Below are positions 17,540-52,241 of a stretch of DNA of 64,000 bases, piece by piece. The stretch is from the NCBI GenBank assembly GCA_012842495.1, contig DUSS01000009.1, positions 98,646-162,645 on the forward strand, written 5' to 3'. Under the pieces are notes generated by a model. That model did no database searches. It was not told the DNA's origin and saw only the letters and a program-made list of their open reading frames with translations. The translations under genes and the position numbers were made by a program. This stretch comes from Candidatus Fermentithermobacillaceae bacterium. GTDB lineage: Bacteria; Bacillota; Sulfobacillia; Fermentithermobacillales; DUSS01. The first letter of the stretch is position 1; every line of letters starts with the position of its first letter.

Positions 17540-17828
17540 CCGTTAATTCGATAGGTTGTGGGGCCAAAGCTGCCAATCCTACCCAATGGACCGGTGCGCG
17601 GCATCATGGTGTCACTGCTATAAATGCTGATTTAGCAGGTCAGGTATTCACCAGCGTTCTCCGCCCACGCAAGGTAACGCCGGCTTACACCAGGGAGGAA
17701 AACGGAAAGCTCCCGGCGTAATCGCCCTGGCGGGGCCGTATCGCCCCGCTCCTTTGCACGAGTTAAGGTCCGACGTCGCCTCCGGTACGGAGACGCCGGA
17801 TTCGAAGAACGGAAAGAGGTATCGGAAA

Positions 17829-19184
17829 ATGCCGGACGTGCTCCTTGTCACGCCTCCGCGCCCTCTCAGGCTGGTGCGAGAGGAGGTCGGGGAAAACCTC
17901 GGCCTGGGCTTTCTCGCTTCCCTCCTACGGAAGCGGGGTATCTCCGTGGAGATCCTGGATGGTTCGCTGTCAGGTTGGAGCATCAGGAAGATGGCCGGCG
18001 AAGTCCGGGCGCGCGATTTCAAGGTGCTGGGAGTCTCGCTGGTGCTTCCTTCCCTGGTCAAGCCCGGATTCCAGCTGATCCGGGCGGTCACCCGCTCAAA
18101 GTCGGGTGCAAAAACCCGCGACAGGTCTTTCTTGGTGGCCGTCGGGGGACATACGCCGTCTCTGGCGTGGAGAGAAACGCTTTCCGCATGTTCCGAGATA
18201 GACGCGGTTGTCCGGGGTGAAGGCGAGTTGACCTTCGTCGAACTCGTGGAAAAAGTGCTCGGAGGACGGGACTGGGAGGATACGTCCGGAATCGCGTTTT
18301 TGCGCGACGGGACTCCCATCGCCAACCCGCCCCGAGACCTCATCGCCGATCTCGACGAGCTTCCCCCGCCCGACCATGACCTTTTACCACAGGTACTTTC
18401 CCGGGGCGGCCATGCAACGATTTACTCATCCCGGGGATGCTACGGTAAGTGCTCCTTCTGCAGTATCAGGGCATTTTACGAGATTGGCCCCGGGCCTAAG
18501 TGGAGAGCTATGTCGCCGGGAGCCGTAGTCGACGAAATCGAGCGCCTCCACCGGGATTACGGCGCAGATGAGTTTCGCTTCAGCGACGACAACTTCATCG
18601 GTCCGGGGCGGGCCGGCAAAGAGCGGGGGTTTGAAATCGGCAGGGAGATCATCAGGAGAGGCCTCAAGGTGCGTTTCATGATTTCTGCTCGGGCCGACAA
18701 CGTCGACCGGGATCTCCTCGCGCTTCTCAAAGAAGCCGGCTTGAGGCAGGTTTTCCTCGGGGTAGAGGCGGGAGTCCAGACCATGCTCGACCGCTTCAAC
18801 AAAGGTGTCACAGTAGAAGAAAACCGCCGGGCCGTATCCATCATCCGGGAGCTCGGGATCGAGCCCGTAATCGGGTTCATTCTCTTCGACCCGGATACCA
18901 CCACCCAGGAGCTTTTCGACAACCTCACCTTCTTGAAAAGCATCGGCCTGACCGAAGGCGGTTTGAATTCCCGGCTAGACGTTTTGAACCGCCTGGAGGT
19001 CTATCCGGGAACTCCCGCGGAACAGAAGCTGAAGCTGGAAGGAAACCTCAGGGGCGATTTCACCGATTACCGTTACAGGTTCCGCGATCCGGTGGTATCC
19101 CTCATCTATCACAGCCTGCGGGCATTTCAGCGTATATCCATACCCATCAGGAGGGCCTTTATGTCCCGGTCCCGGGTATCGTGA
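17829..19184 (+). CDS. B12-binding domain radical SAM protein (class B rSAM)
   Basis: N-terminal Rossmann-like B12-binding region (VLLVTPP..., VLGVSLV) followed by CYGKCSFC (CxxxCxxC) radical SAM cluster motif. ATG at 17829 follows an AGAGG SD. Confidence 0.8.
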   Translation: MPDVLLVTPPRPLRLVREEVGENLGLGFLASLLRKRGISVEILDGSLSGWSIRKMAGEVRARDFKVLGVSLVLPSLVKPGFQLIRAVTRSKSGAKTRDRSFLVAVGGHTPSLAWRETLSACSEIDAVVRGEGELTFVELVEKVLGGRDWEDTSGIAFLRDGTPIANPPRDLIADLDELPPPDHDLLPQVLSRGGHATIYSSRGCYGKCSFCSIRAFYEIGPGPKWRAMSPGAVVDEIERLHRDYGADEFRFSDDNFIGPGRAGKERGFEIGREIIRRGLKVRFMISARADNVDRDLLALLKEAGLRQVFLGVEAGVQTMLDRFNKGVTVEENRRAVSIIRELGIEPVIGFILFDPDTTTQELFDNLTFLKSIGLTEGGLNSRLDVLNRLEVYPGTPAEQKLKLEGNLRGDFTDYRYRFRDPVVSLIYHSLRAFQRISIPIRRAFMSRSRVS

Positions 19185-20290: not shown

Positions 20291-20322
20291 ACATAAAACA
20301 GGGCGCTCCTTGCGGAGCGCCC
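20291..20322 (-). terminator. rho-independent terminator ending the 4-gene membrane-protein operon
   Basis: Minus-strand RNA: GGGCGCUCC-GCAA-GGAGCGCCC, a perfect 9-bp stem with a GNRA loop, followed by UGUUUUAUGU. Confidence 0.75.
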
Positions 20323-20348
20323 CGGATCGCCTTTGTATGCCGGTACTA

Positions 20349-20963
20349 CTAGCCGATAGGAATCCCCAACCAGTTCGAGAGAAGGAACGAGAGCCTCTGC
20401 AGGAACAAACTGATACGCCCCTGTATCGTATTACCGAACGCCGTCCCCAGGGCCACCATGAGAACCAGCCTGCCGACTTTGCCGCCCACCGAAACCACCG
20501 GCGATCTCTTACCGACGGTGAAGAAGAAGTACATGAACGCGGTGAGCAGCAGCAAGAAGAAGATCACGTCATTGACGTTCGTCAGCGGCCTCATGCTGTC
20601 AGCCAGCTGCTGCATGGGGCTCCTCGGAGAGACCGCTATCACTGCGCCAAGACCCCAACCTACTTCAAGAGCGATTGGGTACCGGGCGAGCCATTGTAGT
20701 TTGCCCGGCAAGTACCGGAAGTAGTACAGGAGACCCAGGAGACCGAACACGATGTAGTAGTACTGGTGCCGCTCGATTATATACGTCTTGGTCCTGGGAA
20801 TCAGGTAGTTATTCCACAAATTCGCCACCTGATACGAGGTGTACAGGGCAACGAGGGAGTACTCGGCCAGACGCCAGAAGGGGTTCTCCTTATACAGGTA
20901 GGAGTACACGGCCAGCGTGCACAAGGCCATGACCCAGACCTGAGGGTCTGTGCTTACGTGCAC
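20349..20963 (-). CDS. hypothetical polytopic membrane protein (operon gene 4)
   Basis: 204 aa, ~5-6 hydrophobic helices, Trp/Tyr-rich; no recognisable family. Confidence 0.55.
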   Translation of the reverse strand: MHVSTDPQVWVMALCTLAVYSYLYKENPFWRLAEYSLVALYTSYQVANLWNNYLIPRTKTYIIERHQYYYIVFGLLGLLYYFRYLPGKLQWLARYPIALEVGWGLGAVIAVSPRSPMQQLADSMRPLTNVNDVIFFLLLLTAFMYFFFTVGKRSPVVSVGGKVGRLVLMVALGTAFGNTIQGRISLFLQRLSFLLSNWLGIPIG

Positions 20964-21002
20964 CGAATTTCACCTCCTTTGTTCACTCCGGGCCGCTAAA
21001 CC

Positions 21003-21830
21003 TTAGCCCTTCTTCCGCAGCTTGCTGATATATCCGATGTTCCCGAGGACAATCAGGACGATAATCCATAAATGTCCCAGAGACTGAGCATCCATCTTCT
21101 TAACGGTAGGACCGCCGCCCCAGAGGAGGATCTCATACTGAGCGGCTCCAGTCATACCAAGAAGATTCCCTTTAACCTGACCGGAACGCACGTACGGGAC
21201 GACCTCGGCTGCTTGCACCGCCACGTTGCCCACGTACAGAGGCCATCCGACGAAGAAGTTGGTGTACGTGGGAAGTCCGGGAGAACCGGCTGTGAAAATC
21301 ATGACCGGCATGTCAGGAGTCCACTGCTTCACGCGCTCCATCAACGGCAGGTCCGAGAACTTGTTCCCGAGGTGATCTGTCTCAGCGCAGGCATTCCAGA
21401 AGTCGACCTGCATCTGTCGCCACGTGGTCGTCCCGCCAGCCTTATAGCCGACGTAAACCCAGTCCGTCCCGTATTCAGCAGAATAACCGTCCTGCTTGGC
21501 CTTCTCGGCGGCAGCCTGACATACTTTGTAACCCAGGCTGGCTCCGGTGTTCCACTGCGCCACTATCACAGCCTTGGCGCCCTTCTTCATGCAGTGGTAG
21601 AACCACGCAGAAAGTTGAGGGCTGAGCTCCGCATCCGAACCGCCCGCGTACGCCACATCGCCGAATACGATGTCGCCGGGCTTCAGGCTCTCGACCCAGT
21701 TGTAAACAGTCTTCGTCCCCTCGTCCATACCCAAAGCAAGCCCGACTGGCTTGAGGATGGGGATGGTCAGGAGGATCGCCATCACCAGGTAAACCCAGCG
21801 CGGGTTGATGTTTTCAAGCTTCTCCACCAA
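21003..21830 (-). CDS. hypothetical bitopic membrane protein with a large extracytoplasmic domain (operon gene 3)
   Basis: 275 aa; N-terminal TM (WVYLVMAILLTIPIL) and C-terminal TM (LWIIVLIVLGNIGYI) flanking a ~220-aa soluble domain. Confidence 0.55.
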   Translation of the reverse strand: MVEKLENINPRWVYLVMAILLTIPILKPVGLALGMDEGTKTVYNWVESLKPGDIVFGDVAYAGGSDAELSPQLSAWFYHCMKKGAKAVIVAQWNTGASLGYKVCQAAAEKAKQDGYSAEYGTDWVYVGYKAGGTTTWRQMQVDFWNACAETDHLGNKFSDLPLMERVKQWTPDMPVMIFTAGSPGLPTYTNFFVGWPLYVGNVAVQAAEVVPYVRSGQVKGNLLGMTGAAQYEILLWGGGPTVKKMDAQSLGHLWIIVLIVLGNIGYISKLRKKG

Positions 21831-21884
21831 ATTTCCCTCCTTTCACGCACGCGGTGAAAGATCCGCAACACGTAACGGAAGATA

Positions 21885-22550
21885 TTAGTCCACTCCGAGA
21901 TACCGTCTCTCAAGACCCAGAGCCACCCTCACAGCCGTCACGTAAGCACCGATGAACAGGCCGAGGTTAATCGCTCTAAAGCCAGCGCCGTTGGGAACGT
22001 TCATCAACCAGTCCCTGATGCCCTTGAAGCCTCCCAGCCAGCTTGTCTGGGACCAGATGGCGTTCCCGAGGGAAGTGTTCCCCATCATGATGATGAAGGC
22101 GACTACCATCATCAACCCCGCTTCGAGGCTCCGCACCCGGAAGGCCCTGTATGCAGCCGATGCGATGAAGAAAGCCAGGAGCGAGAAGGTCGTCGAGTCG
22201 AGGGGCACTATCACTCCGGTGTAAATCCACTCGAAGTGCTTGCCTTCCATACCCTCGACGATACCGATGATGGCATACGCATACAGCACTACAAGCAGCC
22301 AGATGCTGTACGGCCAATTCTCTCTCTTGCGCCTGATGTTCCCCACGTGGTTCCTGGTCAGGTTCCAAACTCCCATGAAGAGAGCCACGACGCTCATATA
22401 CACCACGGCGTTGGATATGCTCGTGAAGAGATTCTCCTTAGTGCCGTCGGGGAACGTGATCTGAAAGTCGTACAGCGGACCGATAAGCTCGAACAAGGCT
22501 CTTACCAACAGGAACACTATTGTGAGGATGATCGGAATCTCTCTACGCAA
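21885..22550 (-). CDS. hypothetical polytopic membrane protein (operon gene 2)
   Basis: 221 aa, ~5 TM helices; no recognisable family. Confidence 0.55.
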   Translation of the reverse strand: MRREIPIILTIVFLLVRALFELIGPLYDFQITFPDGTKENLFTSISNAVVYMSVVALFMGVWNLTRNHVGNIRRKRENWPYSIWLLVVLYAYAIIGIVEGMEGKHFEWIYTGVIVPLDSTTFSLLAFFIASAAYRAFRVRSLEAGLMMVVAFIIMMGNTSLGNAIWSQTSWLGGFKGIRDWLMNVPNGAGFRAINLGLFIGAYVTAVRVALGLERRYLGVD

Positions 22551-22585
22551 CTAACTTACACCTCCTTTCAGTCCGGGCCGGGAGA

Positions 22586-23416
22586 CTAGAACAGAACGGC
22601 GTTACGCAGCGCGTCCACCTTCAACGTGGCGAGAATCGCGCCCGCTATGATGAGGGCGTAGAAAGCGACCCTCATCAGGTCCTCCGCCACCACGCTACCG
22701 TAGATCACGGGTTCTTTGGAGAGAAGGGCCGCGCCAGCATAGTACTCCTCTCCTATGAGGGTGTAGTCGCAGGCGGCGACGAAGAACGGCATCTGGGCCG
22801 TAGCGCTGGTGGCAGCCACTTGCACCGCACCCACAAGGTTACCCGACTCGGCGATGATCAAGGCCTCGGCGTAGAAGTAACCTATGAGGAACTGAGCCGC
22901 GGGTTTTTCTCTAGCCACGATACCCGCAACACCCATTGTGTACCCGAACTGCCAGTCGGACAGGAACCGAACGTCGTCCCTGTTGAAGGCGTCCGGCCTT
23001 CCGGCCTCCAGGTACGCTTGACGGATGATCTCTTCGTTGACCACCATCGTCAGGTAATCGGAGTTGGTGTTGATGATGCGGGTGTCGTAGGAGGCGCAAA
23101 GCTTGGCTACGTGGGACAGGTAGGACCAGAAGGCGAACGTATCGTAGTCGCCCATGTACTCGTAATAGTCGGTGATGTGAACCGGCCTACCCATTTCGGT
23201 GGCCCGCCCCACCGCCTCTTCAAACGCCTCGAGGCCGGGGATGTGTCTGATCTCCGGAATCTTAAGGCCGGCCCTCGCCCTTTGAATCATGATATAAGTC
23301 AGAACGAAGAGCGCAATTCCGACCAAGAAACCGAAGACGCAGCCTTTCACGTCCCTGAAGATCCCCCACTTGTACTTGGGTGCTTCGGCCGCCAGGAACA
23401 ACAACAGATCTGACAT
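22586..23416 (-). CDS. hypothetical polytopic membrane protein (operon gene 1)
   Basis: Likely start MSDLLLF at 23416 after an AGAGGAGG SD; the ORF is open to 23476. Has a TM helix, then a ~120-aa soluble segment, then several TM helices. Confidence 0.55.
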   Translation of the reverse strand: MSDLLLFLAAEAPKYKWGIFRDVKGCVFGFLVGIALFVLTYIMIQRARAGLKIPEIRHIPGLEAFEEAVGRATEMGRPVHITDYYEYMGDYDTFAFWSYLSHVAKLCASYDTRIINTNSDYLTMVVNEEIIRQAYLEAGRPDAFNRDDVRFLSDWQFGYTMGVAGIVAREKPAAQFLIGYFYAEALIIAESGNLVGAVQVAATSATAQMPFFVAACDYTLIGEEYYAGAALLSKEPVIYGSVVAEDLMRVAFYALIIAGAILATLKVDALRNAVLF

Positions 23417-23592
23417 CTTTTCACCTCCTCTTTTTTCTGGAGCAAAAACCGGTACCCCACCAGACCATACGCGCAACTTGCTGTGGAAATGCCTGGATCG
23501 GGGTTCCAGTTTCGTGCCTCTCTGGGGTCCTGTATTCGACGCGGAGCTTTATTTTCCTTCTTGCATGAGAGGGTTATTAAAAGCTTATTTTA

Positions 23593-24483
23593 TCACAACT
23601 CATCCCCACAAGGGCTACCGTCCTGTTTGTAGCGCTCGCTACCTTCCCTTTTGCTGGTTTTTCCTTCAATGACCACCACGTGTGGGAAAGGTATCTCTAT
23701 CCCTGCCCGATCCAGCGCTTCTTTCAAACGCAATCTGAGCTCCCTTTCCACGCCCCACTGCTCCAACGGCTTTGTGCGTGCCCATACCAGGAGCGTGACA
23801 CCAGAATCTTCGAACTTGGAGACACCGAGGACCTTCGGCCCCTCTACGATGTTGGCTATTTCTCTGGCGGCCTGGTCGCACGCACCTTGAAGCACGGTTA
23901 TAGCTCTCTTTAAATCCTCACCGTACGCTACGCTGATTTCCACCAGAGCTCGAGACTCTCGCACGCTTGAGTTCGTGGTCTTATCCACCAGGCCGTTGGG
24001 GACGATGTGCAGATCTCCCGACCAATCCCGAAGTTTCGTCGTTCTCAAGCCGACCTCTTCAACGATACCTGATACTCCGGCAATGGTGATGTAATCGCCG
24101 ATATCGTACTGGCGCTCATAGATGATGAAAAACCCGTTGATTATGTCCCGAACGAGATTCTGCGCCGCAAAGCCGACCGCCAACCCCAGAATCGCCGCTC
24201 CACCCAGGAGAGCTTTCGTGTCGACTCCGAGAACCTCGAGGATGGTTATGACCGCTATTCCGCTCACCCCGTATCGTAGAGCACTCTTCAAGAGAGACGA
24301 CAGAGTACGGGTCCGGTTGTCGTCCGTCCCCAACCGGGCGATACCTTGAGGCTTTTTAAACATTCTGCCGATGAGAGCGTCCCCCACCTTCAGGGCCACC
24401 GCCCACAGAACCACCACCAGCAAGATGCGGAGGGCAGCTCCTCCCACCTGGTAAACGACTTGTGCGAGGTCCGGCAGGTTCAT
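23593..24483 (-). CDS. mscS: mechanosensitive ion channel, MscS family
   Basis: 296 aa; three N-terminal TM helices followed by the MscS beta-domain (GDYITIAGVSGIVEEVGLRTTKLRDWSGDLHIVPNG). Confidence 0.85.
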   Translation of the reverse strand: MNLPDLAQVVYQVGGAALRILLVVVLWAVALKVGDALIGRMFKKPQGIARLGTDDNRTRTLSSLLKSALRYGVSGIAVITILEVLGVDTKALLGGAAILGLAVGFAAQNLVRDIINGFFIIYERQYDIGDYITIAGVSGIVEEVGLRTTKLRDWSGDLHIVPNGLVDKTTNSSVRESRALVEISVAYGEDLKRAITVLQGACDQAAREIANIVEGPKVLGVSKFEDSGVTLLVWARTKPLEQWGVERELRLRLKEALDRAGIEIPFPHVVVIEGKTSKREGSERYKQDGSPCGDEL

Positions 24484-33235: not shown

Positions 33236-33395
33236 CGGCGAGGGTCTTCGGGGCAAGGTGAAGCAGCGCAAGCTGCCAGTCCTGACCGGCGGTAAAGCCC
33301 GCGAGCCGCGTCCCGTTCTACAGTTGGACACGGTAGAGCTGGTGAGATTCCAGCGCCGACGGTAAAGTCCGGAAGGGAGAAGATCCTGCGGTAAC
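33236..33395 (+). ncRNA. FMN riboswitch (RFN element)
   Basis: UCUUCGGGGCAAGGUGAA...GACCGGCGGUAAAGCCCGCGAGC...GGUGAGAUUCCAG...GCCGACGGUAAAGUCCGGAAGGGAGAAGAUCC aligns with the conserved RFN segments (compare B. subtilis ribD leader GCCGACAGUGAAAGUCUGGAUGGGAGAAGGAU). Directly upstream of an ECF S-component gene. Confidence 0.8.
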
Positions 33396-52005: not shown

Positions 52006-52082
52006 TGGTGGCCCCAACGGGAGTCGAACCCGTGTTACCGCCTTGAAAGGGCGATGTCTTAACCACTTGACCATGGGGCCAC
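52006..52082 (-). tRNA. tRNA-Glu (anticodon UUC)
   Basis: rc: GTGGCCCCATGGTCAAGTGGTTAAGACATCGCCCTTTCAAGGCGGTAACACGGGTTCGACTCCCGTTGGGGCCACCA. Cloverleaf intact, anticodon loop CTTTCAA. Confidence 0.85.
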
Positions 52083-52083
52083 C

Positions 52084-52158
52084 TGGTGCGCCCGGTGTGC
52101 ATCGAACACACGACCAACCGGTTATGAGCCGGCCGCTCTGCCGCTGAGCTACGGGCGC
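52084..52158 (-). tRNA. tRNA with CAU anticodon (Met; a lysidine-modified Ile2 cannot be excluded)
   Basis: rc: GCGCCCGTAGCTCAGCGGCAGAGCGGCCGGCTCATAACCGGTTGGTCGTGTGTTCGATGCACACCGGGCGCACCA. Confidence 0.75.
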
Positions 52159-52164
52159 AATTAA

Positions 52165-52241
52165 TGGCTCCTCGAGCAGGACTCGAACCTGCAACCCTCC
52201 GGTTAACAGCCGGATGCTCTGCCATTGAGCTATCGAGGAGC
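52165..52241 (-). tRNA. tRNA-Asn (anticodon GUU)
   Basis: rc: GCTCCTCGATAGCTCAATGGCAGAGCATCCGGCTGTTAACCGGAGGGTTGCAGGTTCGAGTCCTGCTCGAGGAGCCA. Confidence 0.85.

Follow-up and report, generated by a model that had tools for sequence, protein, structure and literature searches.

A four-gene cassette for a DUF6754-containing membrane complex in a Candidatus Fermentithermobacillaceae bacterium and in other bacterial lineages

Introduction

The redox pumps Rnf and Na+-NQR contain two six-helix subunits of ~200 amino acids (aa) placed in opposite orientation in the membrane (RnfA/E; NqrD/E), a membrane-anchored outside subunit with an alpha/beta fold (RnfG, NqrC), and a peripheral partner that begins with a barrel-sandwich-hybrid domain (RnfC, NqrA). 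Paired transporters of the SMR type have four helices, are mutually homologous and lack soluble domains, and aerotolerance proteins of the BatA/BatB type consist of a von Willebrand A domain between two transmembrane (TM) helices and are encoded in a multi-gene membrane operon beside an ATPase. Here, we describe four adjacent genes, g1 to g4, on the minus strand of a 64,000-nucleotide (nt) stretch from a Candidatus Fermentithermobacillaceae bacterium (contig DUSS01000009.1 of assembly GCA_012842495.1, positions 98,646 to 162,645), hereafter called the window. They encode an obligate hetero-oligomeric complex of the cytoplasmic membrane, with an alpha/beta domain on each membrane face, which would comprise roughly 16 TM helices.

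Among the described systems, the nearest architectural analogue that can be named is Rnf / Na+-NQR, and the likeness is one of architecture only. It extends to a neighbour of the four genes in other loci (partner cluster c3), which has weak matches to RnfC_N and NqrA_N. In hhalign comparisons of g2 (alignment A4) and g4 (alignment A3) with Escherichia coli RsxA and RsxE, the probabilities were 0.1–1.4%, and a comparison of the same type between g3 (alignment A1) and E. coli RsxG gave a probability of 0.2%. There is no Pfam match to Rnf-Nqr or FMN_bind, and the four proteins contain no flavin or iron-sulfur motifs. Membership in the Rnf / Na+-NQR redox pumps was rejected, given this lack of sequence similarity and the absence of cofactor-binding cysteines from g2 and g4, in which no cysteine is found among the positions conserved in at least 90% of sequences. 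The transhydrogenase, SMR pairs and BatA/BatB-type proteins each have no more than single features in common with the complex. For PntAB, the proton-translocating NAD(P) transhydrogenase, the similarity is generic: no match to the PNTB profile was obtained, no glycine-rich nucleotide loop follows the first strand, and the g3 domain lies on the outer face, where there are no nucleotides. SMR pairs (EbrAB and the dual-topology families) resemble the complex in having two similar-sized polytopic subunits, apparently in opposite orientation and encoded in one operon, an arrangement that would suit alternating access; however, g2 and g4 have no detectable similarity to each other, and the orientation of g4 is deduced rather than observed. 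The BatA/BatB-type proteins share an alpha/beta domain clamped by N- and C-terminal helices.

Conservation of the four-gene cassette

In the window, g1 (22586..23416, 276 aa), g2 (21885..22550, 221 aa), g3 (21003..21830, 275 aa) and g4 (20349..20963, 204 aa) follow one another on the minus strand. An initial annotation, made from the window sequence, had proposed four co-directional genes at these positions, and each of them is confirmed as an open reading frame (ORF) with homologues. Since these homologues number hundreds to thousands for each protein, the four genes are real and not chance ORFs. Their conservation was analysed in 86 loci, of which 80 were kept as one genome per species (at least 592 stretches encode a g1 relative) and six are metagenomic; six-frame ORFs of these loci were queried with the window proteins. 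We define the four-gene DUF6754 cassette here as g1-g2-g3-g4 on one strand, encoding proteins of ~275, 210, 275, and 205 aa, a definition that the window fits, as do all complete loci. A g1 homologue was detected in all 86 loci, g2 in 82, g3 in 81 and g4 in 77, and profile searches gave equal counts.

In every complete locus, the order is 1-2-3-4 on one strand. The cassette is spread over at least 15 phylum-level lineages, with differing flanks and the gene order kept throughout, as the initial annotation would have it for a dedicated system. The lineages include Bacillota (with Symbiobacterium thermophilum and Candidatus Fermentithermobacillaceae), Chloroflexota, Planctomycetota, Zixibacteria, WOR-3, Stahlbacteria, Ignavibacteria, Armatimonadota, Sumerlaeota, Latescibacterota, Poribacteria, Eisenbacteria, Coatesbacteria, and others. 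Median intergenic distances across the loci are 16–29 nt, and overlapping genes are common. None of the window's neighbouring genes (mscS, tepA, ylzJ, eamA, dapF) stands beside the cassette in any other locus examined; the cassette thus travels as a self-contained unit.

Two or three complete cassettes, arranged in tandem or convergently, are found in at least 15 loci. The copies are 33–77% identical, and therefore each paralogous complex retains its own full four-gene set. Across 74 complete cassettes, the pairwise identities of the four proteins correlate with r of 0.80–0.85, a mirror-tree correlation that is partly due to shared species phylogeny. The four genes are thus one inherited unit, co-duplicated and co-evolving. 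The conserved order, the joint duplication and the parallel divergence also support the initial proposal of a dedicated, stoichiometric membrane complex of unknown function.

Nine loci are incomplete. Six of the nine stop at a contig edge, and the other three (L050, L056, and L060, from WOR-3, Stahlbacteria and an uncultured bacterium) contain g1 alone, with no recognisable g2–g4 downstream of the g1 homologue despite 1.6–4.5 kb of further sequence. The g1 genes of these three loci may be orphan or rearranged copies.

Family assignment and family size

The g1 protein matches Pfam DUF6754 (PF20539) with an E-value of 3.9e-86 and 288.8 bits (cut-off 27) over profile positions 14–254 of 257, and it is a full-length member of this family; its homologues in other phyla score 375–415 bits. 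For g2, g3, and g4, nothing above threshold was found in Pfam or NCBIfam. Neither database gave a match above threshold between any of the four proteins and the known transporter superfamilies (ABC, MFS, RND, DMT, TRAP DctQ/DctM, TTT, ECF, PTS), and there are no Pfam matches to MotA_ExbB or ExbD/MotB, the families of the 5:2 motors MotAB, ExbBD, and TolQR. The g2 family was also scanned one protein at a time, and the 60 homologues gave only scattered sub-threshold hydrophobic matches. Searches of PDB chain sequences, with single sequences (g1, g3) or profiles (g1, g2, g4), returned no match. An anti-phage defence system was considered and rejected: the four proteins have no PADLOC family, with no defence model matched at E up to 0.1 for any of them.

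Judged from these profile searches, membership in a known family is established for g1 alone and for DUF6754 alone. The initial annotation, which could place none of the proteins in a family, therefore holds for g2–g4 and needs amending for g1, a DUF6754 protein whose function is unknown; nor do the profile searches split the four proteins among unrelated known families. The Pfam entry is limited to this single protein and gives no function; it includes neither the three partner genes nor the helix-clamped Rossmann-like architecture nor the conserved operon. A full-text literature search found no paper mentioning DUF6754, PF20539 or PF13941 (the Pfam family of a partner ATPase described below), and a search for MutL, glutamate mutase and ASKHA together gave nothing useful. 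By sequence comparison, then, no subunit belongs to a characterised family, and the whole assembly is undescribed in the searchable literature; g2 and g4 are judged here by sequence, and their folds could yet link them to a known transporter class.

These families are large. There are more than 6,000 clusters at 90% identity for g1 and at least 1073 homologues for g2 (from a word-limited search), and the g3 profile matches 5,558 clusters at 50% identity with E up to 1e-3, or 4,400 with E up to 1e-10. The complex is present in hundreds of species from many phyla, mostly uncultured, often in several copies per genome. With three of four subunits lacking a family entry, it marks a gap in the list of bacterial membrane parts.

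Architecture of the subunits

The most conserved of the four subunits is g1. Its AlphaFold model (predicted local distance difference test score, pLDDT, 89.5) shows a TM helix at ~26–48, a Rossmann-like alpha/beta domain at ~63–233 and a second TM helix at ~236–264. At 74 positions the protein is conserved in at least 90% of sequences, and many acidic residues are invariant. The alpha/beta domain most probably faces the cytoplasm, with the short N-terminus outside, because the motif RAR follows TM1 and because a signal peptide and an outside domain precede TM1 in other phyla. In g1 of lineages other than Bacillota, the signal peptide is followed by an extra domain of ~90 aa before TM1, which has an FN3-like sequence pattern in most of these proteins; in some, the added domains are larger. 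The FN3 label refers to this sequence pattern alone: Pfam did not confirm it in the 90-aa extension and gave one weak Pur_ac_phosph_N match in one protein. Examples of the extra N-terminal domain are found in L065 (4500–5681), L037 (7488–8750), L042 (6297–8738), and many other loci outside Bacillota, and the extension in L042 has a weak PQQ/beta-propeller match.

In the AlphaFold model of g3 (pLDDT 93.5), an N-terminal and a long C-terminal TM helix likewise enclose a Rossmann-like alpha/beta domain, which has three layers and six parallel strands. The domain spans ~210 aa, and the C-terminal helix carries the invariant residues Q249, H253, and N264. A near-invariant Arg precedes TM1, and a basic tail, KLRKKG, follows TM2; on account of both, the N-terminus and the tail are placed in the cytoplasm and the domain outside it. 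The g3 homologues that have CARDB inserts in the domain agree with this location. The g1 and g3 models change the topology given by the initial annotation, three polytopic proteins and one bitopic protein, to two bitopic (g1, g3) and two polytopic (g2, g4) subunits. Some g3 homologues are enlarged: P0414 and P0499 have large inserts in the outside domain, one of them CARDB and one a long array of PBS-lyase-type HEAT repeats, and P0221 appears to be g3 with an unrelated C-terminal extension. Apart from the CARDB and HEAT inserts, long homologues of g3 or g4 contain no informative domains that could serve as fusion clues.

Six TM helices are predicted for g2. The hydropathy and K+R profile of alignment A4 shows six hydrophobic segments, with both termini and the second and fourth loops clearly basic, and by the positive-inside rule this argues for an N-in/C-in topology. 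The predicted cytoplasmic loops are Arg-rich and contain the invariant sequences NIRRRRE and FIASAAYRAFRVR. In a planctomycete (L035, 1249–2595), a g3-like alpha/beta domain (E 6.9e-9) is inserted in the predicted outside loop of g2 between TM3 and TM4, with a separate g3 gene following; this insertion supports the outside location of the loop and the closeness of g2 and g3. In g4 there are ~six hydrophobic segments whose charge bias in alignment A3 is opposite to that of g2, so its N-terminus is probably outside. Near-invariant residues of g4 are N27, E34, R183, and R190. Taking the subunits together, conserved polar residues in or at the membrane are D246 of g1; N63, R135, and R208 of g2; Q249, H253, and N264 of g3; and R183 and R190 of g4.

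The models of g1 and g3 have an identical order of secondary-structure elements and common PDB neighbours. The likeness of the two halves of the cassette extends to sizes (276/221 versus 275/204 aa), domain plans and deduced orientations. It can be hypothesised that g1+g2 and g3+g4 resemble two copies of one two-gene module placed in opposite senses. Because profile comparisons give no homology between g1 and g3 or between g2 and g4, the idea of an inverted duplication is one of architecture. Fold searches with the g1 and g3 models found no specific relative; the neighbours include receiver-like (CheY) and RCK/KTN folds.

The MutL/GlmL partner module in other loci

Same-strand partner genes stand beside the cassette in 32 of the 86 loci, and in 15 of the 28 that have at least 5 kb of sequence on both sides. 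They are found in Bacillota and in PVC/FCB lineages. The module comprises one or two ATPases of the ASKHA superfamily, ~620 aa long and of the MutL/GlmL family (PF13941, E 1e-119 to 1e-126); a protein of 380–470 aa with weak barrel-sandwich-hybrid matches (RnfC_N, NqrA_N, biotin-lipoyl), one of them above the Pfam cut-off; and one or two small soluble proteins, often with a two-helix protein containing a bacterial PH domain (2TM-bPH). Examples are located in L020 (11133–16761), L057 (2595–5952), and L001 (5398–8641). This module has the appearance of a separate, uncharacterised system. No homologue of the partner clusters c0, c3, c4, and c5 is encoded in the 64-kb window, and none of the partners lies within 8 kb of the cassette in its closest relatives, L007, L009, L012, and L013. 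The link between cassette and ATPase is real in other lineages and is not required in cis.

Possible functions of the complex

It is tentatively proposed that the complex is a translocator of a new kind, which we consider plausible and still short of probable. In the proposed mechanism, an antiparallel core of g2 and g4 would pass a solute, an ion or a lipid-linked molecule through the membrane. The g3 domain would take up or release the cargo outside, and the acidic, conserved domain of g1 would bind or process it inside, docking on the Arg-rich cytoplasmic loops of g2. In many lineages, the neighbouring MutL/GlmL-type ATPase and its partners would probably act at the cytoplasmic face; in the window, the core stands alone. 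We favour a translocator because a similar-sized polytopic pair is apparently arranged in opposite orientation, because intramembrane polar residues are conserved, because no catalytic or signalling signature was found, and because paralogous expansion recurs, as it does in transporter operons.

Several observations weigh against this proposal and the architecture on which it draws. No similarity to known transporters was found, by sequence for g1–g4 or by fold for g1 and g3. The best-conserved part of the complex is a soluble cytoplasmic domain, which is more enzyme-like than carrier-like. There is no substrate clue: no riboswitch or leader RNA was found in the cassette or 5′ of ten related cassettes, and no metabolic neighbour is consistent. 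The orientation of g4, needed for an antiparallel core, is taken from a weak K+R charge bias. The two-module likeness finds no counterpart in profile comparisons of g1 with g3 and of g2 with g4, which did not differ from reversed-sequence controls, and the shared species phylogeny accounts for part of the mirror-tree correlation. A cobalamin riboswitch in L005 (1347–1540, minus strand) was considered as a substrate clue and rejected; it belongs to a FecCD/periplasmic-binding ABC importer on the opposite strand and is unlinked to the cassette.

The complex could instead be the membrane platform of a larger ATP-driven machine, with no transport of its own, in which a MutL/GlmL-type ASKHA motor works with the barrel-sandwich, small helical and 2TM-bPH proteins. 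The remodelling or upkeep of an envelope component, or of a bound cofactor, could be its task, by analogy with the reactivase ATPases for B12 enzymes; the lineage of the window would then have lost the partners or encode them elsewhere. The same-strand position of PF13941, barrel-sandwich and small proteins beside the cassette in the 32 loci mentioned above, among them 15 of the 28 well-flanked ones, speaks for it, and the highly conserved cytoplasmic domain of g1 is a plausible docking site. However, the core is kept without these proteins nearby, as they are absent from the 64-kb window and from the 8 kb around the cassette in L007, L009, L012, and L013, and we regard the platform as a possibility of rather low probability. 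It is unlikely that the cassette encodes an enzyme complex of envelope biogenesis, in which g1 would transfer a group such as a sugar or phosphate to a lipid carrier, the polytopic pair g2 and g4 would act as flippase for the product, and g3 would complete the reaction outside.

A transmembrane sensor or signalling complex, in which g3 and the variable outside domain of g1 would read a ligand or the state of the envelope and relay it to the cytoplasmic domain of g1, is very unlikely. Such a role would be consistent with a soluble domain on either membrane face, with outside accessory domains that differ among lineages, and with the CheY receiver-like and RCK/KTN folds among the structural neighbours. 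However, matches of the CheY type are generic, twelve polytopic helices make an unusually large core for a sensor, and no kinase, cyclase, HAMP, PAS or DNA-binding domain is present in the cassette or consistently adjoins it. That four unrelated membrane proteins are adjacent by chance can be practically dismissed: the lack of annotation, and nothing further, would favour it, and it is refuted by the strict order across phyla, the duplication of whole cassettes, the correlated divergence and the g3-like domain within a g2 homologue.

If the complex is a transporter or an ATPase-coupled machine, it would define a new class, and an annotation would become available for thousands of proteins now called hypothetical, from anaerobic digesters, sediments, and Planctomycetota/FCB genomes. 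A more far-reaching possibility, which we consider improbable, is that the cassette is the core of an undescribed, widespread transmembrane machine that arose by ancient inverted duplication of a two-gene module, a helix-clamped Rossmann-like subunit plus a six-helix subunit, has a soluble domain on either membrane face and is powered by a MutL/GlmL-type ASKHA ATPase in about half of the lineages. If true, this would represent a new principle of energy coupling for membrane transport, unrelated to ABC, P-type, rotary, and Sec systems. The question has become testable, now that the subunits and their topology are defined and that conserved residues, candidate partners and cultured hosts (for example, Symbiobacterium thermophilum) can be named.

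The gene unit in the window

The four genes are closely spaced in the window; the gaps are 35, 54, and 39 nt, which corrects in detail the 36–56 nt initially reported. All four have a strong, near-identical Shine-Dalgarno site, AAAGGAGG, located 4–9 nt 5′ of the start codon. The site of g1 reads GAGGAGGTG at 23430–23422 and lies within the gap between mscS and g1 (23417..23592, minus strand), which was delimited from sequence and composition. The start of g1 is assigned to the ATG at 23416, which is served by this site and is used by a database protein of 100% identity (P0001), and not to the TTG at 23476. For g3, a GTG at 21827 is an alternative start as good as the one at 21830.

The mscS-g1 gap is 176 nt long and AT-richer, with a G+C content of 0.465–0.48 versus ~0.57 locally, and the earlier observation that the unit starts after an AT-richer region with a strong Shine-Dalgarno site stands, given these values and the AAAGGAGG sites. 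In the promoter scan, no sigma-70-type promoter with two hexamers was found 5′ of g1. An extended −10-like sequence, TGATAAAAT, was noticed by eye at 23595–23587, where it extends 3 nt beyond the gap and overlaps the mscS stop codon, and is a candidate promoter. The terminator scan also listed a weak hairpin at 23463–23449 (minus strand), followed by TTTTT and located 19 nt 5′ of the g1 Shine-Dalgarno site, which could be a leaky terminator of mscS or a leader element; Rfam gave no match for the gap or this hairpin. The separate transcription from mscS that was initially proposed, and with it the 5′ boundary of the unit, is accordingly putative.

The 3′ boundary is well supported. Terminator scan and sequence agree on an intrinsic-terminator-like hairpin (20291..20324, minus strand), and the GNRA-loop terminator of the initial annotation is thereby borne out. 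Its stem-loop at 20324–20299, GGGGCGCTCC-GCAA-GGAGCGCCCT, has an 11-bp stem with 9 G-C pairs and a GCAA loop, and is followed by a T-run, TTTTATGT; it is located 25 nt past the g4 stop codon.

The unit is flanked by an MscS channel gene upstream and by genes for a Clp-type (TepA-like) protease and YlzJ downstream, the same neighbours that were initially named mscS, tepA, and ylzJ. Contigs identical to the window have been recovered repeatedly from biogas fermenter metagenomes and belong to an uncultured Bacillota bacterium. A 476-aa ORF at 17754–19184 on the plus strand overlaps the ylzJ stop region with its 3′ end, in convergent orientation, and its counterpart on the identical contigs is a B12-binding radical SAM protein (PF02310 and PF04055). 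Elsewhere in the window, a cluster of three tRNA genes is located at 52009–52239 (minus strand), and an FMN riboswitch is found at 33240–33388 (plus strand), with 103.7 bits against a gathering score of 66.2.

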